DNA of 64,000 nt from Minisyncoccota bacterium (GTDB lineage: Bacteria; Patescibacteriota; Minisyncoccia; Phycocordibacterales; PALSA-1337): assembly GCA_041665385.1 (NCBI GenBank), contig JBAYIX010000003.1:13128-77127 (forward strand). Reading direction: 5' to 3'. The translations under genes and the position numbers were made by a program. Positions 2,645 to 42,025 of the stretch are shown here, piece after piece. Under the pieces are notes generated by a model that saw only the letters and a program-made list of their open reading frames with translations, searched no databases and was not told the origin of the DNA. Each line of letters opens with the position of its first letter. Position 1 is the first letter of the stretch.

Positions 2645-2645
2645 C

Positions 2646-9894: not shown

Positions 9895-9899
9895 ATATT

Positions 9900-11015
9900 T
9901 TATTCTTTGCCATTGGTTAGGAGCCAGTCTAATAATTCTCGTAACGGAGTATGTGCGACGCATACATGCTTGTCTCCTCCGCCGTAATATACGTATAACG
10001 TATCATCTTTAACAGTTGCTCCGCAGGCATATACAACACCTGGTTTCCAGTCATTTTCATACCATTCCGTGGGTGTAAGGATGGGGGAAGGGGATCTAGC
10101 GATGATTTTCGTAGGATTATTGAGGTCGAGGAGGAGAGCACCTAGCTTGTAGCCGATATGCGGCTCACGTTTGTCCATGGCATGGTATAGGACGAGCCAA
10201 CCCTGAGGAGTCTTTATGGGCGGAGGGCCGCCGCCACGGATCATATTGTCCCAAAAGTCTTTGCGCCCGGGCTGTGGACCGGCTTTGCGTGGGCTCGATA
10301 TTTCCCTGGTCATAGGTCCCAAGGTGTCAACGTATTCGATCATGACCTTTGGCACTATACTATGGAGTATGGCAAACTTACCGTTTACTTTTTCCGGAAA
10401 GAGGAGCCAGTTTTTATTGATCTGACTTTTGGGAGAAATAAAAACTGGTCGAGACCACTTCCATCGCTTCTGATAAAAGTCTTCGGCATTGATGGATGTG
10501 AGGGCGATCCTTATGAAGTCCCAACCGTCAAAAGCGTTGAAAGTCATATATATCTTTTCTCCTATGCGGACCAGTCTCGGATCTTCGGCCCCGCCCCAAC
10601 TGCCGCCGGAAGGGTAAATGACAGGATCATATCCCTTTGTATGTGCAGGGATATTTTCGCGCGGTTTTTGCATGGCGAATATGGGATAGGAGAGGCGTTC
10701 GTCTATGGTAAGTCCGTCCTTGCTCGATGCATAACCGAAACGAGACACACCGTCTGCACCTATGGCACGGTATACGAGGTGTACTTTCCCTGTATCATCC
10801 TGAAGTGCGGCCGGGTTGAAAGTGCCAACTGTCTCCCATTCATTCCAGGGCTGAGGAGACATGATGGGATTCATAACGTGGCGGTTTATCTTTTTTGAAG
10901 ATTTACCATCACGATCCCGCAGACTCGCACTCATCCACCATATATAGGCTAGCGCTATGAGCGCGAGCAAGAATGAAAGTAATGAAAATATTAGGGTGCT
11001 AGTGATTTGATCCAT
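9900..11015 (-). CDS. GH130/DUF377 glycoside phosphorylase-like protein with N-terminal TM anchor
   Basis: N-terminal TM (LIFSLLSFLLALIALAYIWW), then GGAEDPRLVRIGEKIYMTFNAFDG. Confidence 0.7.
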   Translation of the reverse strand: MDQITSTLIFSLLSFLLALIALAYIWWMSASLRDRDGKSSKKINRHVMNPIMSPQPWNEWETVGTFNPAALQDDTGKVHLVYRAIGADGVSRFGYASSKDGLTIDERLSYPIFAMQKPRENIPAHTKGYDPVIYPSGGSWGGAEDPRLVRIGEKIYMTFNAFDGWDFIRIALTSINAEDFYQKRWKWSRPVFISPKSQINKNWLLFPEKVNGKFAILHSIVPKVMIEYVDTLGPMTREISSPRKAGPQPGRKDFWDNMIRGGGPPPIKTPQGWLVLYHAMDKREPHIGYKLGALLLDLNNPTKIIARSPSPILTPTEWYENDWKPGVVYACGATVKDDTLYVYYGGGDKHVCVAHTPLRELLDWLLTNGKE

Positions 11016-11057
11016 TTATGTAAAATATTGGCGAAGTGAAAGATCGCCGAAACCAGA

Positions 11058-11414
11058 TTACCCCTGAATTCTCCCGTACTTGTCATCGAGTCTTACGATG
11101 TCTTTTTCATCGAAATTTCCGAATGATATTTCAAGGATCTCGAGGGCCTCTGTGCCACCTGCTATACGGTGCTCGGTACCGCGAGGTATCCAATGCGTCT
11201 CACCCTTTTTTGCCGGGATGACATCTTTGCCTTTTGTGACGTGTCCCGAACCGCCGAGTATGCACCAAAACTCATCGCGCATGGTGTGTGTCTGCAAACT
11301 TAGGATCTCTCCTGCCTTTACCGTAATGATCTTTACGGTCGTCGGCTCATTGTGGGTGAACTCTATGAAATCTCCCCAAGGACGTTCTTCTCTGTATGGT
11401 TTGGGAGGTTGCAT
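11058..11414 (-). CDS. cupin-domain protein (mannose-6-phosphate isomerase type II C-terminal-domain-like)
   Basis: 118 aa Cupin_2 fold with His/Glu metal ligands (LQTHTMRDEFWCILGG ... GTEHRI). Last gene of the PMM-GH130 operon. Confidence 0.55.
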   Translation of the reverse strand: MQPPKPYREERPWGDFIEFTHNEPTTVKIITVKAGEILSLQTHTMRDEFWCILGGSGHVTKGKDVIPAKKGETHWIPRGTEHRIAGGTEALEILEISFGNFDEKDIVRLDDKYGRIQG

Positions 11415-11571
11415 GATTGCCCCTAATTATACTCGAAAAGTCATAGAAATACGCATGAAAACTGTGCATAACTCGGAGAGTTCCTTCCTACGCCAAGGCT
11501 TCGGAAGGCAAGTCAATCTCACAGAACACGCACTGTTTGCAAAAAAGTCTTAAATATGCGATATTAGTCCC

Positions 11572-11796
11572 ATGGTAAACAGGATGCGCGCAACGCGGGC
11601 ACACCGCGATAATAGGAGGTCACACCACGCTCTGGGAGCGGCGCGTTTTTCCAAATGCCAGAATTGTGGCACGATGCACAAGAGCCACACTATCTGCATG
11701 ACATGCGGATGGTACAATGGTAGAAAGGTGCTTGATCTCGCGGCAAAGGCAGCAGCCAAGGCCAAGAGAAAAACAGCAGCCGCAAAGAAAGCTTAG
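11572..11796 (+). CDS. rpmF: 50S ribosomal protein L32
   Basis: RRSHHAL ... CQNCGTMHKSHTICMTCGWYNGRKV zinc ribbon. Lys/Ala-rich C-terminal tail. Confidence 0.85.
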   Translation: MVNRMRATRAHRDNRRSHHALGAARFSKCQNCGTMHKSHTICMTCGWYNGRKVLDLAAKAAAKAKRKTAAAKKA

Positions 11797-11854
11797 TTTG
11801 TAACCGTTGGCCAGAACTGGCCAAATTTAGAGAATAGTTCTTTAACGCAAAATT

Positions 11855-12754
11855 ATGGCAAACCGCCATCTGTCACGTTCAATCGTTTTACAATCTTTGT
11901 TCGAATGGGACTTCCGCGGTCAGAAGGATGCGGAAATACCTCTAATTATTGGGCGCAATATGAAAGAGTTTGCCCCGGGAGTAAATGACTTTTCTTTTGT
12001 CGAGAATTTAATAAAAGGAATTTTGGCCAAAAGAAAGGAACTGGATGATATCATAGAAAAGGCTGCGCCCGACTGGCCTATAGACAAGATCTCTCCAGCT
12101 GATAGAAATGTGTTGCGACTCGGCCTGTACGAGCTCTTATTTTCTGACCGTTCGGAAGTACCCGCAAAGGTGGCTATAAATGAGGCTATCGAACTGGCAA
12201 AAACATTTGGAGGAGATACTAGTGGTCGCTTCGTAAACGGCGTCCTCGGCGCTGTCTACAAAGAGCTCGGCGAGCCCGGCAAGGATGCTGTAACCACAAA
12301 GAGAAAGAAGGTAGAAGTGCCATACGAAGCTATGCCCGTACAGCACCTCGGCGGTGCTGTGGTATACGCCCGCGAAGGCAATGATATATATCTGGCTTTT
12401 GTACACGATGTTTTTGGTCATTGGACTCTTTCCAAAGGCAAAATAGCCGAAGGTGTTGACCCAAAGATCGGCACAATAGCCAAAGTAAGGGAAGAAATAG
12501 GTCTAGACGTAGAAGTCACAGCGGACCTCGGGACCAACGAGTACATAGCCAATGACCCGGAGATAGGTAAGATCCGAAAGGAGGTTCACTATTATCTGGC
12601 CGAGTCGCCCTTCAATTCCTTGGTATTGGCGAAGAAGCCCGGCCTCGATGACGCGAAGTGGTTCAAGATCGCGGACATCATAGAGCTCAACTTCTATAAC
12701 GATATTCTTCCAATAGTGACTAGGGCGGTAACGATACTGAGTCAAGCAAAATGA
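11855..12754 (+). CDS. NusB-like N-terminal domain fused to a Nudix-fold domain
   Basis: Residues 1-150 are NusB-like (RSIVLQSLFEWDF ... ). Residues 170-299 have a Nudix fold, with the box GKIAEGVDPKIGTIAKVREEIGL (RE of REx2EE replaced by AK). Confidence 0.65.
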   Translation: MANRHLSRSIVLQSLFEWDFRGQKDAEIPLIIGRNMKEFAPGVNDFSFVENLIKGILAKRKELDDIIEKAAPDWPIDKISPADRNVLRLGLYELLFSDRSEVPAKVAINEAIELAKTFGGDTSGRFVNGVLGAVYKELGEPGKDAVTTKRKKVEVPYEAMPVQHLGGAVVYAREGNDIYLAFVHDVFGHWTLSKGKIAEGVDPKIGTIAKVREEIGLDVEVTADLGTNEYIANDPEIGKIRKEVHYYLAESPFNSLVLAKKPGLDDAKWFKIADIIELNFYNDILPIVTRAVTILSQAK

Positions 12755-12771
12755 ATTAAGAATCAGGAATT

Positions 12772-13470
12772 ATGAAACCTACTACAGAATCTTTCGAAAA
12801 ACGTATTGGTGTGAAGTTTGATGACGCAAAGCTGTTGCGTTCTGCTGTGACGCATCGTTCCTACCTGAATGAAAATAAAAAAGTAGATCTGGAACACAAT
12901 GAACGTCTGGAATTTTTGGGAGATGCTGTTCTCGAACTGGTCGTGACTAGTTATCTATTTCGCAAATATACCAAGAAGGCCGAGGGCGAGCTCACGGCAT
13001 TTCGTTCTGCTCTGGTGAATACTGTGAGTCTGACCAAAGTCGCAGAACATATCGGTCTCAATGAATTTCTACTCTTGTCGCGCGGTGAAGCCAAGGATAT
13101 CGGACGTGCACGTTCGGTAATATTGGCAAATGCCGTGGAGGCTGTCATAGGAGCGATATATCTCGACCAGGGTTACAATGCTGCGGCAAACTTTATTGCG
13201 GATCATCTGTTGAATACTATAGACATAGAAGAGATAATAAAGAACAAGACCTGGATAGATGCCAAGAGCCGTTTCCAGGAAAAAGCCCAAGAAAAAGCAG
13301 GTAAGACTCCTTCCTACAAGACGCTCAAAGAGGCCGGACCTGACCATGACAAAGTTTTTACTCTGGGGGTATTTTTGGGAGATGTGCAAGTGGCCACAGG
13401 TAGTGGCCCATCCAAGCAGGAAGCGGAACAAAAAGCCGCGGAAAAGGCACTAGAAGTCAAAGGTTGGTAA
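12772..13470 (+). CDS. rnc: ribonuclease III
   Basis: ERLEFLGDAVLELVV signature plus a C-terminal dsRBD. Confidence 0.9.
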   Translation: MKPTTESFEKRIGVKFDDAKLLRSAVTHRSYLNENKKVDLEHNERLEFLGDAVLELVVTSYLFRKYTKKAEGELTAFRSALVNTVSLTKVAEHIGLNEFLLLSRGEAKDIGRARSVILANAVEAVIGAIYLDQGYNAAANFIADHLLNTIDIEEIIKNKTWIDAKSRFQEKAQEKAGKTPSYKTLKEAGPDHDKVFTLGVFLGDVQVATGSGPSKQEAEQKAAEKALEVKGW

Positions 13471-15749
13471 AAAGTGCTACAATAATATTTATGTACCTAA
13501 AGTCCCTAGAAATAGCAGGATTCAAATCTTTTCCGAAGAAAATTTCCCTGGAATTTACATCATCGATCACCGGTATAGTTGGTCCAAACGGTTCCGGCAA
13601 GTCTAACGTCGCCGAGTCATTTCGCTTCGTCCTCGGGGAACAGTCCATGAAGTCGCTTCGTGGCAAGAGAGGTGAGGATCTCATCTGGAACGGCGGAGGC
13701 GAGGCAGGTAGGGCAAATCGCGCTAGCGTAAAATTGACCTTTGACAACAGGCGAAGATTTTTTCAGAGCATCGACTTTGATGAAGTCTCGATAGAGCGTG
13801 TGGTGAACAGAGATAGCTCAAATGAATATCTCCTCAATGGTAGCCCTGTGCGACTCAAAGATATAGCGGAGCTCCTTGTAGGTGCGCATGTGGGCGCGAG
13901 TGGGCACCACATCATTTCTCAGGGTGAAGCTGACCGTATATTGTCTGCATCTATCAAAGAGCGCCGAGAAATGGTAGAAGACGCTCTCGGTCTCAAAGTC
14001 TACCAGTGGAAGAAACTCGAAAGCTTACGCAAATTAGAAAAGACGGAGGAAAATATGAAGCAGGTAGAGTCGCTCCGACGCGAAATAGCACCACATCTCA
14101 AATTTTTGAAAAAGCAGGTGGAAAAAGTAGAAAAGGCAGAGGAGATGAGACATGAATTGGTAGAGATATGCAGATCTTACTTTGCACGTGAGGATCTTTA
14201 TATACGCACAGAGAAAGAAAAGCTCAAGACCGAGGTGGCGGTACCAAAGAAGGAATCCGAGGAACTGGATAGAGCATTGGAGCAAGCAAAGAATATTCTC
14301 GCCTTGTCCAAAAATAAGGATCAGAAAAGTGAACAGGTGATAGCAAAAGAGTCCGCTCTTTCGGAAATTCGTATTGAGAAAGATCGCATTACCAGAGAAT
14401 CTGGTCGCATAGAGGGTGAGATCAGCGCAAACAAAAAAACCATAGAAAGGGAAAAGGCAAAGATTCAGGACGAAAAGACAAAAGTAGTCTACTTGCGCGA
14501 CGTAGAGGAGATGGTTGTCCGAATAGAAGGCTTTGTGGCCATCGACGATGTAAAAAAACTTTTTAATGATGTTGTAAGTACACTCAGGGAATTTGTGATT
14601 AGGCACAAATCGTCACTAGATTCTGAACTGGTGTCCGATTGCGAAGTTATAATATCTCGCCTCGAAAATGAGAAAAGGGATTGTGACAACAGGCTCGCCG
14701 AACTGATGCAAAGTGAGTCACAGCTCCATAGAGAATACAATGAAATAAAAAATCAGATAGAAATAGAAAAAGATACAGATCGCGATGCGGAAAAGGAAGT
14801 TTTTCGTATCATTGCTAGACAAAATGAAGTGAGGAGTATACTTTCTGGTATAAATAGTCGGCTCACTGCTATCTCTTATGCCGAAGAAACTTATAAAAAG
14901 GAAATGGGCGAAGCTGGTATCTTGGTGGGTAGAGAGGCGGTATCATTTGATCCATTAAATACTGAATCTGGTGGACAGACGGCTTCTAGGGAGGAGCAAG
15001 AAGCATTTCGAAGACAGATAGAAAGAATAAAGATTCGTTTGGAAGATGCTGGTGTAGGAGGGGGTAGTGAGATCATGAAGGAATACAAAGAAACAGAAGA
15101 AAGAGATGCCTTCCTGGCGCGGGAGCTCGGCGACCTGGAGAGAGCTAAGGAAGAACTGAACAAACTCATAGCTGACCTCGATATGAGGATAGATGTGGAA
15201 TTCAAGACTGGCATATTGAAAATTAATAGTGAATTTCAAAAGTACTTTGTCCTCATGTTTGGTGGCGGTAAGGCAGAATTGTCAGTCGTACGGGAAACAA
15301 AAAGGCGCAAGAAAAGCGAAACAGAGGAACTAAGTGATGCCTTGTCGGGGAACGAAGTGGATACGACAGATGAATTGGCCGATGAGCAAGGGCCGGAAGG
15401 ACTGGAAGTGAATATCAGTTTGCCCAGGAAGAAAATTAAGGGTTTGGAAATGCTTTCTGGTGGCGAAAGAGCACTCACTTCGATAGCGCTTCTCTTTGCG
15501 GTGTCACAGGTCAATCCTCCACCATTCATAATACTAGATGAGACAGATGCTGCACTAGATGAAGCGAACTCAAAGAAATACGGCGATATGATAGAAAGTC
15601 TATCCAAAGAATCGCAATTGATCCTCATAACTCACAATCGCGAAACAATGTCTCGCGCTGGAGTAATATATGGCATCACTATGGGTTCCGACGGAGCTTC
15701 GAGACTCCTCTCTATCGCTTTTGAAGATGCCGTGAAAGTAGCAAAATAA
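13464..15749 (+). CDS. SMC-family chromosome segregation ATPase, short hinge-less form
   Basis: N-terminal Walker A GPNGSGKSN, C-terminal LSGGERALTSIALLFA ... ILDETDAALD. Continuous coiled coil with no recognisable hinge domain. 761 aa. Confidence 0.75.
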   Translation: MVKSATIIFMYLKSLEIAGFKSFPKKISLEFTSSITGIVGPNGSGKSNVAESFRFVLGEQSMKSLRGKRGEDLIWNGGGEAGRANRASVKLTFDNRRRFFQSIDFDEVSIERVVNRDSSNEYLLNGSPVRLKDIAELLVGAHVGASGHHIISQGEADRILSASIKERREMVEDALGLKVYQWKKLESLRKLEKTEENMKQVESLRREIAPHLKFLKKQVEKVEKAEEMRHELVEICRSYFAREDLYIRTEKEKLKTEVAVPKKESEELDRALEQAKNILALSKNKDQKSEQVIAKESALSEIRIEKDRITRESGRIEGEISANKKTIEREKAKIQDEKTKVVYLRDVEEMVVRIEGFVAIDDVKKLFNDVVSTLREFVIRHKSSLDSELVSDCEVIISRLENEKRDCDNRLAELMQSESQLHREYNEIKNQIEIEKDTDRDAEKEVFRIIARQNEVRSILSGINSRLTAISYAEETYKKEMGEAGILVGREAVSFDPLNTESGGQTASREEQEAFRRQIERIKIRLEDAGVGGGSEIMKEYKETEERDAFLARELGDLERAKEELNKLIADLDMRIDVEFKTGILKINSEFQKYFVLMFGGGKAELSVVRETKRRKKSETEELSDALSGNEVDTTDELADEQGPEGLEVNISLPRKKIKGLEMLSGGERALTSIALLFAVSQVNPPPFIILDETDAALDEANSKKYGDMIESLSKESQLILITHNRETMSRAGVIYGITMGSDGASRLLSIAFEDAVKVAK

Positions 15750-17021
15750 ATGAACATTCATTTTTTCAAAGTAATTTTGGATATTTTGGAAGCATGGTCG
15801 CTCCATGGTGGGTACGTTTTTTTGTTTTTGGTTTCCACTCTCGAAGCAGTACCAGTCATAGGTTCCGCAGTACCGGGTCATACAGCAGTTATTTTGGCCG
15901 GATTTCTTTCTCGGATAGGCGTCCTGAATGTCTGGTTCGTGATGTTGATCGCCACGTTGGGCGCAATAATTGGCGATATGATCGGATATTATATTGGTCG
16001 AACATACGGTCTAAGGATTATCGAAAGATATAGGGGTAGATTTTTCTTGAGAGATGAATATATAGATAAGGCGAGATCTCTCATATCGAAACATACAGGA
16101 AAAGCTCTCATTATTGGTCGGTTCAACCCTTTAACGCGGCCATTCATGCCTCTTCTGGTCGGAGCGAGCCACGGCCAGGTAGGGAAGTTTTGGTTTTATA
16201 ATATTGCAGGTGGCATAATCTGGGCGGTTTCCTCTGTGTCACTCGGATATGCTTTTGGAGTGGGGTATCATGCCGCGGCACAGATCTTCGGTAAGGCTGT
16301 GGTAATAGTCACACTGGTCGGAGTGGTGGCGATATGGGGATATAGCTTCGTAAATCGGCATTTCCATGTCTTCAAAAAGTATGAACTGTTTATTTTGGGG
16401 CTAAACTTAATTTCTTTTTTTGGAATTATTCAAATGATGCAGGATGCTTGGGCTACGCCTTCTTTTATGGTGAATTTTGATGTTTGGCTCAGTATTTTTG
16501 TGGGCGATTATGTCACCACACCAATGCTTTCTTTGGCTAGGTTAGTGACAGATGTCGGGGGTGCGGCGGTGACGGCAAGTATCGGTCTAGCTGTTGGGAT
16601 TTGGTTTCTGTATGTTCAGAGGTGGCGATCTGCTCTCATCATGCTCTTTTCTGTCGGCACCACACTCCTTTCCGTCGAACTAATTAAGGCACTTTTCATG
16701 CGAGACAGACCATTGAATGCGGTCTATCTCATCTTGAATGATCCTAGTTTCCCGAGCGGACACGCGGCGCTGGCAGCGGCGTTTTTTGCCGCAATAGCGT
16801 ACCTATATGTACCGAAGATCGGATCTTCTGTAAAGAGGGAAATACTACTGGTCGGCTGCGTATTGGCGGCTTTTCTGATAGGGCTTACGCGTATCCTGTT
16901 AAACTTGCACTGGGCATCGGATGTCATAGCAGGGTGGTCGCTCGGCCTATTTTGTGCCACATTTTCTATACTTTTGGTTCGGTATGTTGGGGCGTTTGTG
17001 ATGAATAGGAGGAAAGAGTAG
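15750..17021 (+). CDS. DedA/VTT-domain membrane protein fused to PAP2 phosphatase domain
   Basis: N-terminal DedA motif (GDMIGYYIGRTYG). C-terminal PAP2 motifs KALFMRDRP, PSGH, HWASDV. Confidence 0.75.
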   Translation: MNIHFFKVILDILEAWSLHGGYVFLFLVSTLEAVPVIGSAVPGHTAVILAGFLSRIGVLNVWFVMLIATLGAIIGDMIGYYIGRTYGLRIIERYRGRFFLRDEYIDKARSLISKHTGKALIIGRFNPLTRPFMPLLVGASHGQVGKFWFYNIAGGIIWAVSSVSLGYAFGVGYHAAAQIFGKAVVIVTLVGVVAIWGYSFVNRHFHVFKKYELFILGLNLISFFGIIQMMQDAWATPSFMVNFDVWLSIFVGDYVTTPMLSLARLVTDVGGAAVTASIGLAVGIWFLYVQRWRSALIMLFSVGTTLLSVELIKALFMRDRPLNAVYLILNDPSFPSGHAALAAAFFAAIAYLYVPKIGSSVKREILLVGCVLAAFLIGLTRILLNLHWASDVIAGWSLGLFCATFSILLVRYVGAFVMNRRKE

Positions 17022-17099
17022 TCTTCATCCAAAAATTTGAGTTCCTAAAATAAAAGTGTTGTAATTCTTAGGCAAATTATACCATGCCTGGGAAGCTCG

Positions 17100-17311
17100 A
17101 AATGAGGGCATAATAGGAACCTATCATTTGACGTTCCGTCAAGTTTATGAAAATAAAATAGGAAGGCTTGCATGGACGTTATAATACAGTGAGCAGGAGC
17201 TAACCCCCCTGCAACAAATACCATGGCTGAACCAGTAAAGAAGCCGGGAGCACCGGCTGAGCCTACACAGGCTTAGTTCTATTGAAGAGACGCTCCAAAA
17301 GAGCGTTTTTT
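17100..17311 (+). ncRNA. candidate small RNA ending in an intrinsic terminator
   Basis: Three short GC hairpins (GCAGG..CCTGC, GCCGG-GAGCA-CCGGC, AGCCT-ACAC-AGGCT), then GACGCTC-CAAAA-GAGCGT + T6 at 17289-17311. No ORF. The 5' end is undefined. Confidence 0.25.
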
Positions 17312-17349
17312 CATTATTAGGGCCTGTATATGTGATGCCCACCTTTTTT

Positions 17350-17457
17350 CCCAGCAAGGTTGTGCGGGCTTTTTCCTTCATTTGAAATATTTGTGCAGGG
17401 TCCGAGTATTGTAAACACTTCACAAATGAAGGAAAAAGCCCGCACAACCTTGCTGGG
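17350..17457. repeat. perfect 35-bp inverted repeat with a 38-nt loop carrying the core TGTGCAGGGTC
   Basis: Arms 17350-17384 and 17423-17457 are exact reverse complements. The loop contains ttTGTGCAGGGTCcgag. Both Met-ORFs across the region (17145..17498 -, 17360..17566 +) are mirror artifacts of it. Confidence 0.85.
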
Positions 17458-17827
17458 AGGTGAACGTAGCTCAATAAACATTTTCTTCCATACAGCACAA
17501 CAACCCGCTTTGGCGGGCTGTGTGCATAATGGTTACTCGCAATCGGAGATAGATCGCAAATTTTAAGTGGTGTCCGTTTCCGACGCTAGGCGTGGAATTT
17601 TTTTTGGACCCTATATTTTATGAGTTAAGGATCATCTCCATCATTGGTAACCTGTATTAAGGATATTATTTTTGGTCGCAAAAGTCAAAGGAAAAAGGGG
17701 CCTTTTTCTGGGGTTTAGCTGTGCACAAACTGTGCATAAGTTCACTTTTTCTGTGGACAGAGATTTATCACACAAAACGATGCACTGTGCAATACTTTAC
17801 AAGCATATCCTTGGCTTCCGGAATCTT

Positions 17828-19971
<2,144 letters not shown>

Positions 19972-20104
19972 AGTGCAATTCCTTTGGTTAGTTGTTGACT
20001 TCTCAGATCATTATATACTGACAGGCGTGATCTGTCAAAGGTAGTTTTTTGTACAAGCCGGCGATTCCTAGGGGGTGACCACACGTTTTTCATCGGAGCC
20101 TGGA

Positions 20105-20230
20105 ATTATAGCATGCACGCTCTTATTCTTACTCAAAAGCAGGGCTCTAGTGAGCCACGGTATTGGATGTCAAATGGTGGCTCAGTGACAACGTAGAATG
20201 AACGAAAAATAAGAGCGTGCGTGCTATAAT
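20105..20230. repeat. 23-bp inverted repeat (one U-G compensated position) enclosing a nested 8-bp hairpin, in the leader of the FAD oxidase gene
   Basis: attatagcaTgcacgctcttatt at 20105-20127 versus the reverse complement of 20208-20230 (c/t difference gives a U-G pair in RNA). Inner TGAGCCAC/GTGGCTCA at 20151-58 / 20177-84. Confidence 0.7.
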
Positions 20231-20356
20231 CCGACCCCTCTGTGGCGGCGAGGTGTGTGACGCCAAGGCGGTGGTCGGCCTGGAGAGTGGGAGGTGATCC
20301 AGTTCAAGACTTCCTGACACAATAGTTTACTTAAACCCTGTTTATGTTGCCGGCGC

Positions 20357-22054
20357 TTGTACTTATCTGTCTATCTATGTAGCAATCAACAGGTCATATT
20401 TACTGCCGTAGGTTATAATACACTCATGCCCAATGAAAAAGAGATTGCAGGTTTCATATCCGGCGATGTGGACTCGAGTAAGGAAGCGCTCGAGACGGCT
20501 AGCCATGACGCCAGCATATTTGAAATCAAACCACAGCTGGTTGTGAGGCCGAGAAATTCTGAGGATCTGAAGAAGCTGGTAAAGTATGTCTCCGAAAAAG
20601 GAGGCATGAGTCTCACGGCGCGATCTGCTGGCACAGACATGAGTGGTGGACCACTTACAGAGTCCATAGTCGTAGAATTCACAAAGTATTTCAATAACAT
20701 TATCGAAGTAGGCGAAGGAAATGCCATCACCCAGCCTGGAGTTTATTATCGTGACTTTGACAAAGCGACAAAAGAAAAAGGCGGGCAGATAATGCCGAGC
20801 TATCCAGCATCGCGCGAGCTTTGCACTGTAGGTGGCATAGTTTCCAATAATTCTGGTGGTGAAAAAACTCTCACATATGGCAAAACCGAGCGCTATATAC
20901 GCCGTCTCAAAGTCGTGCTCGCCGACGGCAATGAATATGAATTCAAACCATTAAATGCGACAGAACTGGAAGAAAAAAAGAAAAATCAGAATTTTGAAGG
21001 AGAGATATATCGCAACATGGATAGTCTCATAACTGAAAATGAAGAGAGAATCCGATCTGCAAGACCATTAGTCTCAAAGAACTCCTGTGGTTACTACCTC
21101 TGGAATGTAAAAGATAAAGAAAAGGGGACTTTTGACCTGACAAAGCTCATAGCAGGGTCGCAGGGTACGTTGGGAATGGTAACAGAAGTGGAATTTGCGC
21201 TGGTGAAGCCTAAACTGCACTCACGGCTCCTCGTGGTATTCCTCACGGACCTGAAGCTCCTCGCCGATACTGCTATGCACATACTGAAATTCCAACCGGA
21301 AAGCTTCGAATCTTATGATGATCATACATTCAAAATTGCTGTAAAATTCTTGCCTCAACTCATGCGTCAGATGGGAGGGAATCTCATTACTCTAGGTCTG
21401 GAATTCCTGCCAGAAATGATGGCTGTCATAGAGGGTGGAGTGCCAAAGCTCGTCCTCATGGCAGAATTTACCGCAGACACACCCGAAGAAGCAGTGGCAA
21501 AGGCCGAGGCGGCAAAAGACTCCATAAAGGACTTGCATGAGAAGGCAAAGGTCACTACGACAGCGCGCGATGCGAACAAGTATTGGATCATCCGCAGGGA
21601 GAGTTTCAATATGTTGCGCCACCACGTGAAGGAGTTGCGTACGGCACCATTCATAGATGATTTTGCGGTATTGCCTGCGCGCCTGCCGGAATTTTTGCCA
21701 AAGCTTTACTCTATTTTGGACCAATATAATCTCACCTATACCATTGCCGGCCATGTGGGTGATGGAAATTTCCATATCATTCCGCTCATGAACCTACACG
21801 AGGTGAAGTCACACGAGATCATCAAGGAACTCTCTGTAAAAGTCTATGAACTAGTCCACGAATTTGCTGGCACTATAACCGCCGAACACAACGATGGCAT
21901 GATCCGTACACCATTTATAAAGATGCAATACGGCGAGGAGGTCTATAAGCTCTTCGAGGAGACAAAGAAGATCTGGGATCCCAAGGGGATATTTAACCCG
22001 GGAAAGAAAGTGGGTGGCACATTGGAATATGCTTTTGCGCATATTATTAAATAA
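20357..22054 (+). CDS. FAD-linked oxidase (FAD_binding_4; GlcD/D-lactate dehydrogenase-like)
   Basis: ARSAGTDMSGGPLTE FAD-binding motif and a C-terminal FAD-oxidase domain. The true start may be the ATG at 20424 (MPNEKEIAGF). Confidence 0.75.
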   Translation: MYLSVYLCSNQQVIFTAVGYNTLMPNEKEIAGFISGDVDSSKEALETASHDASIFEIKPQLVVRPRNSEDLKKLVKYVSEKGGMSLTARSAGTDMSGGPLTESIVVEFTKYFNNIIEVGEGNAITQPGVYYRDFDKATKEKGGQIMPSYPASRELCTVGGIVSNNSGGEKTLTYGKTERYIRRLKVVLADGNEYEFKPLNATELEEKKKNQNFEGEIYRNMDSLITENEERIRSARPLVSKNSCGYYLWNVKDKEKGTFDLTKLIAGSQGTLGMVTEVEFALVKPKLHSRLLVVFLTDLKLLADTAMHILKFQPESFESYDDHTFKIAVKFLPQLMRQMGGNLITLGLEFLPEMMAVIEGGVPKLVLMAEFTADTPEEAVAKAEAAKDSIKDLHEKAKVTTTARDANKYWIIRRESFNMLRHHVKELRTAPFIDDFAVLPARLPEFLPKLYSILDQYNLTYTIAGHVGDGNFHIIPLMNLHEVKSHEIIKELSVKVYELVHEFAGTITAEHNDGMIRTPFIKMQYGEEVYKLFEETKKIWDPKGIFNPGKKVGGTLEYAFAHIIK

Positions 22055-35780: not shown

Positions 35781-36638
35781 CTATTTTTGTGCCAAGTCGT
35801 GCTCTCGGAGACTTTCCGCATATATCCTTTCTACATCTGCGGCCGCAAGTGCCTGAGGATATATTCTGACATCGTCGATATAACCGGTAAAGTTCGTGTT
35901 TGAGTTTGTACTCTTACCAACATACACATATCCGTTCACATCGTAGCCAATAAATCCTCCTGTATCGACTACAGCAGGTTTGCCGTCGATGTAGAGAGTA
36001 GTTATACCAGTTGAGTCGTTGTGTGTAGCTGTGATCTGAACCCATTTATTGACGGAACTAGAATTTACTTCGCTCGCGTATAAACAGTGGAATGTACTGG
36101 AGGCACCGCAAGTCGTGTTTACTTGGTTAGTATTAAAATAAAATAGTATTTTATTATTGTAGTTCCAGCCTATGATGGGGTATGAAAATGTTCCAGCTGT
36201 ATAAGTAAATACAACCTTATTTGTCTGAGTAATAGTCGGCTTTGCCCATACACTCAGAGTCCAGCTACGACCCACAGGTACGCCCGTAGAAGATAATCCG
36301 TACGAAGAACCGGAAAAATACATGGAATTTCCAGTGACACCATCTGCTGAAGTTGGTCCGCCGGTAAAGATGAGGGTATTGTTGTTTCCAGAAGTATCTT
36401 GCCCCAAGTTTCCACTGTTGTTGAAATCCCACATTGCTCCTGCTGTTGCACCGAGCGAGTGGTAGTTGGTAGAGTCGAACTGTAGAGCTACTCCTGTCAC
36501 TGCTCTATCTCTGGCGTTCCGTAGGGCCACCAGTATAGTCGATGAGAGAGTACCTATTATAGATATGACGACCAAAAGTTCTATGAGAGTAAATCCTCGA
36601 GCCGTATTGTTAAGAATCATCAGTTTATTATAGCGCAT
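35781..36638 (-). CDS. prepilin-type N-terminus fused to a LamG-like (concanavalin-like) domain
   Basis: ARG|FTLIELLVVISIIGTLSS class III signal. C-terminal DDVRIYPQAL motif typical of Laminin_G_3. Confidence 0.6.
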   Translation of the reverse strand: MRYNKLMILNNTARGFTLIELLVVISIIGTLSSTILVALRNARDRAVTGVALQFDSTNYHSLGATAGAMWDFNNSGNLGQDTSGNNNTLIFTGGPTSADGVTGNSMYFSGSSYGLSSTGVPVGRSWTLSVWAKPTITQTNKVVFTYTAGTFSYPIIGWNYNNKILFYFNTNQVNTTCGASSTFHCLYASEVNSSSVNKWVQITATHNDSTGITTLYIDGKPAVVDTGGFIGYDVNGYVYVGKSTNSNTNFTGYIDDVRIYPQALAAADVERIYAESLREHDLAQK

Positions 36639-37430: not shown

Positions 37431-37454
37431 ACTGCGGAGAGGAGGGGATTCGAA
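37431..37454. repeat. direct repeat matching the tRNA-Ser 3' end (23 of 24 nt); putative attL-like site
   Basis: actgcggagaggaGgggattcgaa versus tRNA-Ser 3' region 40493-40516 actgcggagaggaAgggattcgaa. Confidence 0.6.
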
Positions 37455-37615
37455 GCTTACAGCCGTTCAGCAGAACGTGCCGGAGGAGGTGCGGTACAGG
37501 TTTCGCATTCATGAGGTAGGATGCCACCTCATGAATAGGCTCAACCTTTTCGAATTCCTTCACGCAAGCCGCGAAGGCGGCTTGCTCTCTCCTTCGTTTA
37601 CTCGCTGCGCTCGTT

Positions 37616-37639
37616 CACTGCGGAGACGGTGGGATGAAG
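37616..37639. repeat. second, more degenerate copy of the tRNA-Ser 3'-end repeat
   Basis: cactgcggagacggtgggatgaag. Shares tcactgcggaga with the copy at 37430. Confidence 0.45.
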
Positions 37640-37706
37640 TTGGAACTTATTTGGCTTGTAATATAAATAAACTAGTAACAATTCAATAAAGTTGTAGAAT
37701 GGCCAC

Positions 37707-38648
37707 ATGGATATTCAATTGAGCAGAAATTCAAAATGTAGCTGTGGCAGCGGGAAAAAATATAAAAAATGCTGTCTTGAAAAAGACCAGCAAAATAGAC
37801 CTGCATCAGTACCGGGTGGAGCTATTGCCGGTGTTCTTTATGGACCAATATCAACGGCATCAGAGGACCACTTCCTTAATCGGTTCATGTTCGGAATTCT
37901 GAATATTCGCGATTTTGTAGTTCCCAAGGAAAAGCGGAACGAATTTGACAAAGATTATGATGCTATCCTTCAGAATCTTACTGAAGCCAATTTTGCTAAA
38001 GACTTCTCGTTGAGCTGTATGAAAGGTCATATTAAGGCTATTCATGACGGTAAAGACGGCGTCGTGACAGGTTATCAATTGAATGTGACCCATCCTATAG
38101 ATACGGAACTAAACGTATTCTTCAAAGATTTCTTCATCCGATCAACAATGGCAATAGGCGGGCTGCAAAGACTGCTGAATAAGTGGTTCGGGTATAACAC
38201 AAGCTTTCTCTTTTCTGATGACGAAAAGAAGTTCAAAAAAGGCGCGTCGTCTTTCAAACTTGACCAAAAAGATCCCCGATTTCAAAATCTGGCAATGTTC
38301 ATAAAATCACACCGAGATGATTGGTATATAAAATTTAAGGATCTGAGAGATGACATTGAGCACAATGGTTACAAATTGCCCCAGATAAAACACAGGGTTG
38401 GACCAGATGGAAAAGTACAGGTTCTGTTTCCGGCACCCCACGGACAAACCATAGAGCAAATCCTAAATATAGGTTGGAACAATTTGTTGAATTTATGTGA
38501 AGAAGTCCTTGTGTTTATTATGAGTCTTGAATTAAAGGACCAATACATTATCTGGAAAGTACCGGAAGAGAAAAGGGAACAATTCAATTGGGTTAGATAC
38601 AAAGTATCAATTCCAGATTTTCCCGAAGCGCACGTCTCATGCTCGTAG
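37707..38648 (+). CDS. SEC-C motif (CxCGSGKKYKKCC zinc-binding) N-terminal domain protein, function unknown
   Basis: N-terminal KCSCGSGKKYKKCCL equals the SecA C-terminal/YchJ-type metal-binding motif. The remaining roughly 290 aa have no recognisable motifs. Confidence 0.45.
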   Translation: MDIQLSRNSKCSCGSGKKYKKCCLEKDQQNRPASVPGGAIAGVLYGPISTASEDHFLNRFMFGILNIRDFVVPKEKRNEFDKDYDAILQNLTEANFAKDFSLSCMKGHIKAIHDGKDGVVTGYQLNVTHPIDTELNVFFKDFFIRSTMAIGGLQRLLNKWFGYNTSFLFSDDEKKFKKGASSFKLDQKDPRFQNLAMFIKSHRDDWYIKFKDLRDDIEHNGYKLPQIKHRVGPDGKVQVLFPAPHGQTIEQILNIGWNNLLNLCEEVLVFIMSLELKDQYIIWKVPEEKREQFNWVRYKVSIPDFPEAHVSCS

Positions 38649-38777
38649 AGATTCAACCCACAGAGTTGAAGGCGGTGTGGTGACGTCGAAACTTTTCTTG
38701 CATTGAATATAGCCAAAATTTGGGTAAAAGAAGAACCGCTCGACAAAAGCCAAGCGGCCTTCGTGAGCGGTGTTGAT

Positions 38778-39299
38778 TTAACCGACTTTTTGAGTTGGGT
38801 GCTGTCTCGCAAAGATCCATCGATCAGCCCATCCATAAGGCATCAGGTCGAGCTTTGTGACAGGTGAATGCGTAGTTATGCGACGGTTTTTTGCATCCGC
38901 TTCCATCGGAATCACTTCCGAGTAGCGAAGTAGGAATTTTTCACCCGATAATTCTAACGGCTCCATCGCAACATTGATCCACGCCTGACCGTAGAACTTG
39001 ACTCTTGGTTCTAACGGATAGGCTAGTGCAGCCATCTCCGCCGTGCAGAGCATGTATCCTTTGGCGACAATGGCTTCGTAGACTTTCTCTACCGAGGCTA
39101 CAGATTCACCTGTTAATTCATAGTCTGGTGCACAGAAGAGATCTACCTCGATCTGAGTCTTCGATGGGGCGTACTGACGCAACGCCGGAACGACACCTTC
39201 GCCGATCCAGAAACCATTGTGTCGTTTTTCTTCGAGGATTTCCTCGATAGATGTGTAGGTGCCAAGTTGCACCGTTCTTGTGTGAATGGGCTGGTTCAT
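38778..39299 (-). CDS. hypothetical protein
   Basis: 173 aa, no motifs recognised. Confidence 0.35.
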   Translation of the reverse strand: MNQPIHTRTVQLGTYTSIEEILEEKRHNGFWIGEGVVPALRQYAPSKTQIEVDLFCAPDYELTGESVASVEKVYEAIVAKGYMLCTAEMAALAYPLEPRVKFYGQAWINVAMEPLELSGEKFLLRYSEVIPMEADAKNRRITTHSPVTKLDLMPYGWADRWIFARQHPTQKVG

Positions 39300-39492
39300 T
39301 TGTTTCTCTTTCTCAAAGTTTTTGAAGTTGAAAATGACTTTAAAATCACATCAATTGTGAGCTTAAAGTCACTTTCAACCTATATCAAAGATCTGGACTT
39401 TCAGGATTCGCGATTATTCGATCGTAAATCCAGTTGAGTGCCCCACATTGCTGTGAGGCCGAGATTACGTTCAATCTCAAAAGTGATGAAGG

Positions 39493-40212
39493 TTACTTGT
39501 TCGCAGAAGCTCTTTCCGTATTATCCTTCGTGAGCTGCGCGGACGCTTGTTTAAAGATTTCTCCTTTATCAGGCGTCAGACCAAAGTCGTGCGTCGCGAC
39601 ATTCCAGATTCGATCAAACATTCCTTCGCAATGTTCAATCCAATTGCCCGCGTGAATGACGCTAAAGCGGGCTATGTCCGGCACGATTCGGATCGTTTCA
39701 AAGTCTGCTTGCGCATCAAGAATCCTGTAAGCCGCTCGAACCAGTCTTTCCTTAACCTGCGGATCGTCAATTACATCCCAGTAAGGATTGCCTTGGCCTA
39801 GGTAGTTGAGCGAATCCACTGATCTGCCAAGTCGGGCAAAGATCTCGTCGCAGTCGGAGATGTTTTGTCTAGCGGCTTGATTCTCGTTATCCAAGCGCCT
39901 CAGCCAAACAAAGCATGCAACGACCATCGAAAACGGAATACCCCGTATCACTGCAACCCAGACAGGGTCAACGATACCCCACTTAGAAGTATACGTGATC
40001 GCCAGGATAAAGAGAGCACCGAGCCCAAACATTATCTTCTGGATTCGGTTGATCTTCGTGTCGTTTTGCTTGATTTTGGCGAGAGCCGTCTCCCTTTCTT
40101 GTTTTGCCTTGAGCAAGCTTTGACCGTGGATCATTGCCTTTTCCCATTGCAAACGGAGACTCTCGGCGACAACGCGCATCAGGACTTCGATTTCTTTCTC
40201 AGTAATTTTCAC
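39493..40212 (-). CDS. hypothetical protein with N-terminal coiled coil, two adjacent TM helices and a C-terminal soluble domain
   Basis: TM pair IMFGLGALFILAITY / VWVAVIRGIPFSMVVACFVWL. No catalytic motifs recognised. Confidence 0.35.
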   Translation of the reverse strand: MKITEKEIEVLMRVVAESLRLQWEKAMIHGQSLLKAKQERETALAKIKQNDTKINRIQKIMFGLGALFILAITYTSKWGIVDPVWVAVIRGIPFSMVVACFVWLRRLDNENQAARQNISDCDEIFARLGRSVDSLNYLGQGNPYWDVIDDPQVKERLVRAAYRILDAQADFETIRIVPDIARFSVIHAGNWIEHCEGMFDRIWNVATHDFGLTPDKGEIFKQASAQLTKDNTERASANK

Positions 40213-40496
40213 AGAACTTTCCTTTCAGTGCCATTTTAGACCATGGGGTTGTAGCCCATTTTTACAAGCTTGTGACCTGTAAAAATACTTCATGCAGTCT
40301 AGAACAGTTGGCGGCTATTCTGCGGGGTATTATAACAAATTACATAACGAAAGTCAAGCATTGTCTAGGTTTTAACATGGCTCTGCTTAGCCACATTTCT
40401 CCGCTAAATTTATTCGTGACCGGTGATTCATGGTTGCTCCTCAAGAATATTTTAAGCCACAGACTTCTTGTCCACTTTATGGGGTACGGATCAACT

Positions 40497-40583
40497 GCGG
40501 AGAGGAAGGGATTCGAACCCTTGATGCCCTTTCGGACATACTACCTTTCCAGGGTAGCCCATTCGACCGCTCTGGCACCTCTC
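40497..40583 (-). tRNA. tRNA-Ser (anticodon GGA)
   Basis: 87 nt. Acceptor GGAGAGG/CCTCTCC, 3-bp D stem with an 11-nt D loop, anticodon loop CTGGAAA, long variable arm (ATGTCC-GAAA-GGGCAT), T-arm AAGGG-TTCGAAT-CCCTT, discriminator G. Confidence 0.8.
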
Positions 40584-40615
40584 CATGGAGAACATAATAG
40601 TATTAATTTGGACTT

Positions 40616-40996
40616 TTGGGAAATAAATCATATAATGTACCTATTAATCGTGATAATTTTGAAAGTATGAAATCCATAAAAAAGACGAATATTACTTCAC
40701 CTTTGCCCAAGGAAACATACGAAAAAAACGCACGGCTATACAAAATTTTGGCAAATCCCAAACGTTTGGAGATATTGAATATCTTAAAACAGAATGATAC
40801 ATCGGTAGAGAAACTCCTAACCCTTACAAAACTCCCAAAAGCTAACCTTTCACAACATATGGCCGTTATGCGTCATTGTGGCCTCGTTGTCTCTCATAGG
40901 AAAGGTCTAAATATTACTTATAGCATCGTAGATCCACGCATTGTCGCGGCGTGCGGCATACTCCAGCAACTGCGAAGTCTAGATCTAGTCAGATAA
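40616..40996 (+). CDS. ArsR/SmtB-family transcriptional regulator
   Basis: LANPKRLEILNIL ... LSQHMAVMRHCGLVVSHRKG wHTH. The true start is probably the ATG at 40667. Confidence 0.7.
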   Translation: MGNKSYNVPINRDNFESMKSIKKTNITSPLPKETYEKNARLYKILANPKRLEILNILKQNDTSVEKLLTLTKLPKANLSQHMAVMRHCGLVVSHRKGLNITYSIVDPRIVAACGILQQLRSLDLVR

Positions 40997-41014
40997 TTGT
41001 TTGATAACATATAA

Positions 41015-42025
41015 ATGAAAATAATATTTTTTGAAGCCACAGAAGAAGAAAAGCAATTTTTATCTAATCTTTCACCTGAAAATGATTGTGTTTTTTATGA
41101 AGAAACTTTAACAGAACAAAATGTGGACCTAGCAAAGGATGCAGAAGCAATATCTATTTTTGTAAATTCTGTACTTTCTGAAAAAGTAATAGAGGGAATA
41201 CCAAATCTAAAGTTTATCTCCACGCGTTCTACAGGTTTCGACCATATAGACATTGAGTTTGCAAAAAAAAGAGGCATAAAAGTTTCGAACGTCCCATCTT
41301 ATGGTTCACGAACAGTTGCTGAATATACTTTTGCACTTATCCTGAACCTATCGCGTAAGGTCGGAGATGCATCACTCCAGATAAAACAAAATGGTGATTT
41401 TGATATATCATCTTTTCGAGGGTTTGATCTCTATGAGAAGACATTGGGTGTCATAGGTACAGGTAAAATAGGTAAAAATGTTATAAAGATTGCTCGAGGC
41501 TTTGGCATGAATGTTTTGGCTTTTGATAAATTTCACGATGATAAATTTGCAGCGGAGAACAATGTAAAATATCTACCGCTCGAAGAAGTACTTTCACTTT
41601 CAGATGTCGTCACTATTCATACTCTCTATAACAAAGATACCTACCATCTTCTCAATAAGGAAAATATGAAGCTTATGAAGAAAGGTGCATATCTCATAAA
41701 TACTGCACGCGGGGAAATAGTAGAAACCGACGCTCTGGTGTGGGCACTTCAGGAAAAGATACTTGCTGGCGCAGGTCTGGATGTCCTCGAAGGCGAGCGT
41801 GCTCTCAAAGAAGGTACAGAGGCTGTGATGGATGAAGGCCGAAAGGATCAAAATTTCAAAACCTTGCTCGAAGATCATATACTCATGGATATGCCGAACG
41901 TTACGGTGACGCCACACATCGCTTTTTCTTCCCGAGAAGCCGAAGCAGAAATACTAAAAACAACAATAGAAAATATCATCGCATATAATATAGGTGCACC
42001 ACAAAACTTGGTACAAAAAGTATGA
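41015..42025 (+). CDS. D-isomer-specific 2-hydroxyacid dehydrogenase (D-lactate dehydrogenase-like)
   Basis: NAD-binding GVIGTGKIGKNV, catalytic Arg/Glu/His triad pattern. Confidence 0.85.
   Translation: MKIIFFEATEEEKQFLSNLSPENDCVFYEETLTEQNVDLAKDAEAISIFVNSVLSEKVIEGIPNLKFISTRSTGFDHIDIEFAKKRGIKVSNVPSYGSRTVAEYTFALILNLSRKVGDASLQIKQNGDFDISSFRGFDLYEKTLGVIGTGKIGKNVIKIARGFGMNVLAFDKFHDDKFAAENNVKYLPLEEVLSLSDVVTIHTLYNKDTYHLLNKENMKLMKKGAYLINTARGEIVETDALVWALQEKILAGAGLDVLEGERALKEGTEAVMDEGRKDQNFKTLLEDHILMDMPNVTVTPHIAFSSREAEAEILKTTIENIIAYNIGAPQNLVQKV

Follow-up and report, generated by a model that had tools for sequence, protein, structure and literature searches.

When an integrative element that has inserted at a tRNA 3' end is later deprived of its integrase by a deletion, a tRNA-linked islet or "grounded" prophage is left, and small decayed islets of this kind are common at tRNA genes. 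Effectors of the HEPN ribonuclease (RNase) group belong to systems of abortive infection, to toxin-antitoxin systems and to systems linked with restriction-modification (R-M), and among them are the PrrC/RloC anticodon nucleases found in type I R-M loci, AbiD/F and Csx1/Csm6. Finally, Rugutis is a single-gene, plasmid-borne antiphage protein of lactococci, of the abortive-infection (Abi)-like kind. It has 359 amino acids (aa), its SEC-C motif is N-terminal, and its trigger is the large terminase of the phage (PMC11381338, PMC12184496, PMC13064643).

Here we describe an interval of 3.1 kb next to the tRNA-Ser(GGA) gene of a Candidatus Paceibacterota genome, which carries a gene for a SEC-C-motif protein and a two-gene operon for proteins of 239 and 173 aa. 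The interval lies in a 64-kb stretch of contig JBAYIX010000003.1, and this whole stretch is called the window hereafter. We consider that the interval is probably a decayed islet of composite make-up, adjoining the tRNA-Ser(GGA) 3' end, and the remnant of an integrated element. This reading is based on the anatomy of its attachment (att)-like sites, on the mobile-element pedigree of the SEC-C gene, on a remnant of recombinase context and on one strain variant, and not on an empty site. As a type of locus it is ordinary, that is, a decayed tRNA-linked islet, and its cargo is uncharacterised. Its features in the window are the following, where L numbers denote fetched loci (about 90).

37431-37454, minus strand: copy 1, the distal direct repeat, matching the tRNA 3' end and its trailer at 23/24 positions
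37455-37614, no strand: hairpin-rich, GC-rich (56%) non-coding spacer of 160 nt between copies 1 and 2
37615-37639, minus strand: degenerate direct repeat (copy 2), 18/21 identical to copy 1 (repeat finder, 37615-37635, and three-site alignment)
37675-37706, plus strand: 32-nt block homologous to the end of a recombinase gene (local alignment against L005)
37707-38648, plus strand: SEC-C-motif protein, 313 aa (Pfam SEC-C at residues 7-24, E 2.5e-6, exceeding the curated cut-off)
38726-38771, minus strand: terminator of the two-gene operon (stem at 38734-38759, then a T-run)
38778-39299, minus strand: 173-aa protein, second position of the operon (open reading frame (ORF) call)
39405-39487, minus strand: conserved 3' untranslated segment of the 239-aa gene (about 60-70 conserved nt, following its stop codon), 89-93% identity in L014 and L076-L085
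39493-40212, minus strand: 239-aa helical membrane protein (ORF call)
40226-40312, minus strand: structured leader of the 239-aa gene, ~85 nt, four helices
40329-40357, minus strand: sigma-70-type promoter of the 239-aa operon (TTGACT-17-TATAAT, extended TG, 11/12)
40494-40517, minus strand: tRNA-proximal att-like core (T-loop, 3' strand of the T-stem, 3' strand of the acceptor, discriminator and AGT trailer)
40497-40584, minus strand: intact tRNA-Ser(GGA) (ARAGORN; Rfam RF00005, 56.7 bits), 3' end (low coordinates) towards the island

By using a repeat finder, we found that ACTGCGGAGAGGAAGGGATTCGAA (40494-40517) is repeated in direct orientation at 37431-37454 with one mismatch. This 24-mer is the reverse complement of the tRNA T-loop, the 3' strand of the T-stem, the 3' strand of the acceptor and the discriminator, followed by the AGT trailer. 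When up to three mismatches are allowed, it matches only the tRNA and copy 1 in the 64-kb window, and two matches were obtained in 0/100 shuffles. Read in the orientation of the tRNA, the three sites are TTCGAATCCCTTCCTCTCCGC-AGTTGA at the tRNA, TTCGAATCCCCTCCTCTCCGC-AGTGAC at copy 1 and TTC--ATCCCACCGTCTCCGC-AGTGAA at copy 2, and the outer flank TCACT/AGTGA is common to copies 1 and 2. Beside the copies no similarity to the tRNA body was detected, since 501/1000 and 929/1000 shuffles, respectively, scored equally well. Thus, the copies are att-type fragments of the tRNA 3' end, and the idea that they are decayed whole tRNA genes can be ruled out, as neither copy has a tRNA body beside it. The initial annotation, made from the sequence without database searches, had proposed the minus-strand tRNA-Ser(GGA), the near-perfect copy of its 3' end, a more degenerate third copy and an att-type footprint, and all four are borne out by these data. 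A 24-nt duplication of this sort resembles the product of a crossover in the T-loop, the classical outcome with tyrosine integrases. For serine integrases, whose crossover takes place at a dinucleotide, long direct repeats are unnecessary, so the 24-nt repeats are not explained by that class alone.

The spacer between copies 1 and 2 had also been described as hairpin-rich and non-coding, in agreement with its predicted fold: with 221 nt folded, we obtained z = -5.06, and 0/200 shuffles were as stable. No Rfam family matched the 160-nt spacer and no blastn match was found among the fetched loci; possibly it is the scar of a second, older element. The base composition told another story than the initial annotation, in which the interval was said to be richer in GC than its surroundings. 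The GC content of the island (44.6%) is that of the window (44.8%) and falls at the 32nd percentile of windows of equal size, and its tetranucleotide distance falls at the 84th percentile within the window, so that both checks are unremarkable. Values above average are confined to the 210-nt repeat-bounded spacer (56%) and the pair of genes on the minus strand (49%), with the SEC-C gene falling below (39.7%).

Then, we looked at the relatives of the SEC-C protein. The family comprises 41 clusters among 5.8 billion proteins and 50 loci in JGI metagenomes, about 90 members in all. In the few cases where a source name is given, it is Patescibacteria (Paceibacterota, Berkelbacteria), the other members being on metagenome contigs that lack names; the identical protein in NCBI is annotated from a Candidatus Paceibacterota metagenome-assembled genome. 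The closest relative (P0002; 84% identity at the amino acid level and 77% at the nucleotide level), found in L004-L007, is encoded 18 nt downstream of a gene for a 440-aa large serine recombinase (Resolvase + Recombinase + Zn_ribbon_recom). It stands at the end of a prophage-like region that also encodes a large terminase, a ParB-methyltransferase and a small-terminase-like protein, and about 100 nt separate its stop codon from the 3' end of a tRNA-Ser(CGA). A similar arrangement is seen on the 221-kb contig L046, where host genes (ligA, gatA, dsbA-like) are followed by tRNA-Ser(GGA), a SEC-C homologue, a convergent serine recombinase gene whose product is 68% identical to the L005 enzyme, the type I R-M genes hsdM-hsdS-PIN-hsdR and then a small-terminase-like gene. 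In L026 the order is tRNA-Gln, SEC-C and convergent serine recombinase, and other members adjoin tRNA-Leu (L034), tRNA-Gly (L066) or tRNA-Glu (L069/L070). Packaging genes are common to L004, L009 and L046. Moreover, in L005 and L046 a conserved sequence starts right after the end of the tRNA (CCGCCA|AGAnnATTTAGTATCGG...), and given that the two tRNAs are different, this sequence marks the arm of the element.

Some of these loci have features of their own. In L046 the element at tRNA-Ser(GGA) (9791-20878) is apparently intact and encodes a PIN_12 protein between hsdS and hsdR, a position that we take to be reminiscent of prrC in EcoprrI. Directly after the SEC-C stop codon of L005 there is a perfect 17-bp hairpin (3804-3845) whose arms carry GTTCGAATCCCTT, identical to the T-loop and T-stem sequence of tRNA-Ser(GGA), even though it is a tRNA-Ser(CGA) gene that lies next to it. 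L066 has at 1078-1147 an inverted copy of the tRNA-Gly 3' end (2 mismatches), about 50 nt past the tRNA. The L005 hairpin and the inverted L066 copy may be half-sites of att sites used by serine recombinases.

The homology between the window and L005 begins 32 nt upstream of the SEC-C start codon and ends at the SEC-C stop codon. These 32 nt cover the last 4-5 codons of the L005 recombinase gene (V-T-I-x), its stop codon and the 17-nt intergenic spacer, and their alignment score of 29 (shuffled mean 13.5) was equalled in 0/500 shuffles. Upstream of window position 37675 there is no significant similarity to L005, for which reason we rejected the possibility that copy 2 derives from the recombinase gene. 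The 3' end of the SEC-C gene is directed towards the tRNA as it is in L005, an orientation that agrees with a history of deletion. By comparing the gene with its recombinase-linked copy, we obtained a pN of 0.094 and a pS of 0.80 (ratio 0.12), and hence the SEC-C gene is under purifying selection. The window copy stands alone, with neither a recombinase nor a methyltransferase partner.

A recombinase gene inside the element is expected of tRNA-targeted integrative elements. As already stated in the initial annotation, the island holds none (tblastn and Pfam). With a related enzyme as tblastn query, no homologue of the large serine recombinases was found in the whole 64-kb window, and Pfam detected no recombinase in 20 large ORFs of the window nor among the Pfam calls for window 26.7-51 kb. 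Only the 32-nt remnant of its context is left.

One strain variant is informative. L002, a JGI contig from the same species, is 99.4-100% identical to the window over 37620-41500, while its first 93 nt (opposite window 37527-37619) are unrelated to anything in the window. The switch occurs exactly at the outer edge of copy 2 (window 37620), where the window reads ...TTCACT|GCGGAGACGG and L002 reads ...ATTTTG|GCGGAGACGG. Since the sequence of copy 2 is unique, a repeat-induced assembly chimera in L002 is unlikely. The breakpoint at the edge of copy 2 thus indicates, from the two sequences compared, that the genome was rearranged at this att-like site within the species. The left flank of L002 begins a gene that reads away from the island (MAIEALITWSAPEHL...) and is absent from the window and from IMG/VR. 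The contig of the window itself was also found in the ENA sample ERZ27249449.

The two minus-strand genes have a history of their own. First, the 239-aa protein is all-helical, with an N-terminal helix, one or two transmembrane (TM) segments and, at the C-terminus, a conserved helical domain that bears a GNW..CE motif. The initial annotation had seen a coiled coil and two adjacent TM helices: the helical character and a strong hydrophobic segment (residues 84-104) hold, whereas the second segment (residues 59-74) is weaker. Its structural model is of moderate quality (pLDDT 75, pTM 0.40), and Foldseek against the PDB returned generic helical bundles alone, which we count as negative. Nothing credible was found for either the 239-aa or the 173-aa protein in Pfam, PADLOC, PHROGs or NCBIfam, and sequence profiles of the PDB were negative as well. 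The suggested likeness of the 239-aa protein to membrane-disrupting effectors therefore finds no match in PADLOC, Pfam or the PDB, and nothing beyond the hydrophobic helices speaks for it.

Second, the 239-aa family has 15 homologues, of which the two bearing a source name are from Paceibacterota, and the gene occurs in seven genomic contexts. The promoter and leader, with the neighbourhood where it differs from that of the window, are at:

Window 40226-40357 (minus strand)
L012 ~277-419: beside a ribosomal-protein operon
L013 ~9867-9991: directly after tandem tRNA-Ser genes
L014 ~4622-4780: between dnaE and a phosphoglycerate mutase gene
L076 ~140-235: before rpmA
L087 ~3880-3990: after an ABC ATPase gene
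L089 ~375-490: before a Bro-N gene

Elsewhere than in the window, the neighbours are mostly housekeeping genes, and the SEC-C and 173-aa genes are absent from L012, L013, L014, L076, L087 and L089. In L013, the tandem tRNA genes directly upstream of the homologue (9477-9848) are a tRNA-Ser(CGA) and a tRNA-Ser with the unusual anticodon ACT, and the -35 box of the promoter begins 3 nt after the second of them.

Third, the promoter TTGACT-17-TATAAT is kept in five further loci, and the leader of ~85 nt is almost invariant in all seven, where the 239-aa proteins themselves are 50-84% identical. The leader folds into four helices, and its central 12-bp hairpin has four compensatory pairs among the seven sequences; in the alignment, 98.6% of cells pair, compared with 29-50% in slid controls. 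It matches no Rfam family and is absent from IMG/VR. Judging from this covariation, the leader may be a new class of cis-regulatory RNA of Paceibacterota, or a palindromic operator. For the homologue P0051 (L076-L085), all ten contigs shown start shortly before the conserved leader, at 130-245 nt ahead of the gene; such contig breaks are expected if the segment is shared among genomes of the community.

Fourth, for the 173-aa protein we found a single close homologue (51%) and about 13 distant relatives that share the motifs GYxLCxAE and AMEP. In L012 its place is taken by an unrelated 203-aa membrane protein (window 38726-39520 compared with L012 1130-1900), and the flanks of the exchanged part are conserved, namely the end of the 239-aa gene on one side and, on the other, the last four codons and the terminator (89% identical). 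As far as this comparison tells, the second gene of the operon is swappable. Thus, the 239-aa and 173-aa genes form a separate operon, equipped with a promoter, a leader and a terminator.

To return to the SEC-C protein, it is composed of an N-terminal CxC...CC zinc knuckle and a helical domain of roughly 290 aa. The initial annotation had called the three ORFs and the SEC-C motif correctly, and had recommended structure prediction with AlphaFold and Foldseek. Prediction with AlphaFold2 from a 30-sequence alignment gave a confident model (pLDDT 86.9, pTM 0.78) with the zinc knuckle, a disordered linker and a helical domain made of four long helices and three short beta-hairpins. As for the 239-aa protein, no significant fold match came out of it: Foldseek against the PDB and BFVD returned nothing significant, with no PDB match at E<0.1, the top PDB match being the HEPN protein Csx1 at a non-significant E 0.13 and TM 0.17. 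The SEC-C motif was the only match for this protein in the PDB sequence profiles and in Pfam, PADLOC, PHROGs and NCBIfam.

However weak these matches, one motif stands out. R214-x4-H219, typically R-[ND]-K-I-E-H-x-G, is invariant in 30 and then in 44 distinct family members, down to 31% identity. Subthreshold matches to Pfam HEPN_Cthe2314 (residues about 121-240) were obtained in 4/30 members, and one member has a subthreshold HEPN_Swt1 match across the R-x4-H motif; the best HEPN profile match has E 0.0032 and 17.9 bits, compared with a cut-off of 27.1. Because of the invariant R-x4-H and these subthreshold profile matches, a HEPN-like nuclease is our leading hypothesis for the SEC-C protein, although it is not established and we give it somewhat less than an even chance. 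We rejected a role as recombination-directionality factor, in that most members have no recombinase nearby and are paired with methyltransferase fusions instead. A plain restriction endonuclease is also less likely, because orphan copies such as that of the window persist under purifying selection without an adjacent methyltransferase, and because the type of the partner methyltransferase varies.

These partners are found in a more distant clade, in which the SEC-C gene is paired divergently, in about 19 loci, with a gene for a 480-620-aa fusion of LexA, S24 peptidase and methyltransferase (L008 8073-10927; L031 2903-5293; L034 1103-3613; L039 1469-4022; L049 8409-10918; L058 2721-5143; L068 8074-10894; and about 12 more loci). 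The N-terminal LexA_DNA_bind and Peptidase_S24 domains of the fusion are conserved (44-73% identity), and its C-terminal methyltransferase varies, being of the N6/N4 type in L031, L049, L058 and L068, of the C5 type in L039 and of the Eco57I type in L008. Our literature search found no description of such LexA-S24-methyltransferase fusions. The short regions between the two genes (e.g. L049 9927-10000, L034 2624-2698 and L039 3047-3125) have a TATAAT box and two direct repeats ~11 nt (about one helical turn) apart, which read TAGAAA...TAGAAA or, in another clade, ACCGAA...ACCGAAA. In nearly all paired loci GTTATCCACA, a perfect DnaA-box consensus, lies 2-8 nt ahead of the SEC-C start codon; of this site the window keeps only CCACATG. 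The divergent fusion partner, together with the TATAAT box, the direct repeats and GTTATCCACA between the genes, suggests that the SEC-C effector could be under repression by a LexA-like regulator that cleaves itself and is tied to a modifying enzyme.

If so, the ancestral state would have been a SEC-C effector paired divergently with a LexA-S24-methyltransferase and held by it at the level of transcription, with the two direct repeats as operators. Upon DNA damage or phage replication (RecA*-type signalling), self-cleavage of the S24 domain would release the effector. Large-serine-recombinase prophages would then have captured the effector alone, as a gene for superinfection exclusion, and the window copy would be such an orphan. 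The joint reading of the SEC-C family as an undescribed zinc-knuckle HEPN-like defence effector under LexA-S24-methyltransferase control, with the leader as a new RNA class, is tentative, and we regard it as rather doubtful in this full form.

Several observations weigh against a decayed element. An empty tRNA-Ser site in a relative was not found, and we infer integration from the anatomy only. When the 2-hydroxyacid dehydrogenase encoded nearby was used to search genome contigs, all matches were from distant phyla. The VTT-domain and ArsR proteins encoded on either side had exact counterparts in this contig and L002 alone, and no fetched locus shows synteny with the window. Neither GC content nor tetranucleotides make the island foreign, and the recombinase remnant is just 32 nt long. 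Within the 10 kb available, L005 and L046 have no second copy of the tRNA 3' end, and their junction appears at the extreme end of the tRNA (CCGCCA|AGA), as in a dinucleotide crossover. Given that these relatives have no 24-nt duplication, the repeats of the window may stem from another, tyrosine-type event rather than from the carrier of the SEC-C gene, and the islet may record more than one integration event. The SEC-C family was also absent from the viral contigs of IMG/VR (pattern and tblastn), the INPHARED phages and the PLSDB plasmids. Finally, the HEPN assignment is below every curated threshold and without a significant structural match.

Some of these points would fit equally well if no integration had occurred: local duplication of the tRNA 3' end, its gene conversion, or recombination among tRNA-Ser paralogues would have produced the repeats, and the genes would be native, fast-evolving accessory genes of Paceibacterota, adjacent to a tRNA by chance. 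Such a history would leave GC content and tetranucleotides indistinguishable from the rest of the window and no empty site to be found; the L013 homologue directly downstream of the tandem tRNA-Ser genes indicates that linkage to tRNA-Ser is possible without SEC-C, and the serine-recombinase elements of the relatives lack a long duplication. We nevertheless hold it to be unlikely, because the copies are direct, confined to the segment from T-loop to 3' end plus trailer and have no tRNA body, which is the classical att footprint, because SEC-C relatives are found repeatedly at prophage edges beside recombinases and tRNAs, and because the 32-nt remnant of recombinase context survives.

Less probable still is that the islet is an intact satellite without integrase, mobilised in trans by a helper integrase that would recognise the tRNA-Ser att repeats. 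The genes are intact, that for SEC-C being under purifying selection, the outer repeat is nearly perfect (23/24), and the difference of L002 exactly at the repeat edge speaks for recombination at these sites within the species; yet the left flank of L002 is not the junction that excision would produce. Besides, the content is composite, as the SEC-C gene and the 239-aa operon come from separate evolutionary contexts, and neither an excisionase gene nor any gene for replication, packaging or regulation is present in the islet. Among the fetched loci we saw neither a circular junction nor a second copy, and the 64-kb window has no integrase.

A single defence module made of a SEC-C sensor/effector, a 173-aa partner and a 2-TM membrane effector, as envisaged in the initial annotation, can be dismissed as very improbable: although the genes are adjacent in repeat-bounded DNA and the SEC-C family has defence-like associations, tblastn with the three proteins found the trio, and likewise SEC-C with the 2-TM protein, together in no fetched locus besides copies of this contig, the 239-aa gene is served by a promoter, leader and terminator of its own and has housekeeping neighbours elsewhere, the 173-aa slot of L012 holds an unrelated gene, the SEC-C gene runs on the other strand, convergently to its two neighbours, and PADLOC and PHROGs gave nothing beyond the SEC-C motif.

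The decayed integrative element, which the initial annotation had already suggested beside a satellite mobilised in trans, thus remains the explanation that fits the att anatomy, the SEC-C relatives at recombinases and tRNAs, the 32-nt remnant and L002, and we would reconstruct its history in four steps. First, one or two elements would have integrated site-specifically into the tRNA 3' end; the tRNA is intact, and copies of its last roughly 24 nt are displaced to 37431-37454 and 37615-37639. Second, judging from the relatives, the carrier of the SEC-C gene would have been a prophage-like element as in L004/L005 and L046, the ancestral tRNA-proximal edge of which held a large serine recombinase gene and the SEC-C gene. 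An internal deletion would have taken the recombinase gene and the body of the element, leaving SEC-C and 32 nt at ~35 nt from copy 2. Third, the 239-aa/173-aa operon is independent of these events, as it is found elsewhere without SEC-C and with its second gene exchangeable. Fourth, the SEC-C gene would have been kept for a latent toxin-type effector, most likely a HEPN-like RNase of the abortive-infection or superinfection-exclusion kind, which in many relatives is possibly controlled by the divergent LexA-S24 repressor-methyltransferase fusion. Because no recombinase is present, the islet should now be immobile, barring an integrase acting in trans.

In the wider neighbourhood (window 1493-5112 and 35781-36638), directly left of the VTT gene, are type IV pilus genes for a T2SSE ATPase and a T2SSF platform protein, together with a pilin-like protein in which an N-terminal methylation motif is fused to a LamG/concanavalin-like domain.

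How does this locus compare with described systems? Like the tRNA-linked islets or grounded prophages, it has an intact tRNA, direct repeats from T-loop to 3' end that bound accessory DNA, tandem repeat copies that suggest successive events, and cargo related to genes of prophage edges. It differs from them in that neither a recombinase nor a compositional signal is left, and in that the related intact elements use large serine recombinases and not the tyrosine integrases that are usual for long tRNA 3' duplications. With temperate phages of the phiC31/Bxb1 type, which use large serine recombinases, the family shares the position of SEC-C relatives beside 440-454-aa Resolvase+Recombinase+Zn_ribbon_recom proteins at the junction of prophage and host, whereas the window has no such recombinase gene. 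As in HEPN effectors, the R-x4-H motif is invariant and lies at the end of a long helix, the core is all-helical, and the family is associated with DNA methyltransferases, R-M genes and mobile elements. In contrast to them, further invariant residues (e.g. FKDFFIR) fall outside the HEPN signature, and the window locus has no nucleotidyltransferase antitoxin.

The comparison with Rugutis (pUCCL633_059), which is one of architecture only, brings out an N-terminal SEC-C knuckle (~20 residues) followed by a domain of ~300 aa in both proteins (PMC11381338). Both domains are also modelled by AlphaFold with high confidence and have no significant match in the PDB, and both genes are on mobile DNA. 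Two differences should be mentioned. LexA-S24-methyltransferase or serine-recombinase neighbours are frequent in the window family and are not reported for Rugutis, and the window family comes only from Patescibacteria or unnamed metagenome contigs, a tblastn search of the PLSDB plasmids being empty. A SEC-C protein from an Enterococcus plasmid, considered as a stand-in for Rugutis, has its motif at the C-terminus and is hence not comparable. On the basis of this analogy, the window family may be a distant counterpart of lactococcal Rugutis in the Candidate Phyla Radiation.

What this locus means for Patescibacteria is, first, that large-serine-recombinase prophage-like elements would integrate at tRNA 3' ends in these bacteria and decay there, which bears on how genes are gained and lost in reduced genomes. 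Second, the promoter and leader of the 239-aa operon, nearly invariant while the coding sequence diverges to 50% identity, are a good candidate for a new structured regulatory RNA. Third, few defence systems are known in this phylum, and the SEC-C/R-x4-H family offers a concrete candidate for a new effector of that sort, one that can be tested. This family may also inform on Rugutis, which is mechanistically unexplained, and if the two are true counterparts, it would give Rugutis a mechanism.

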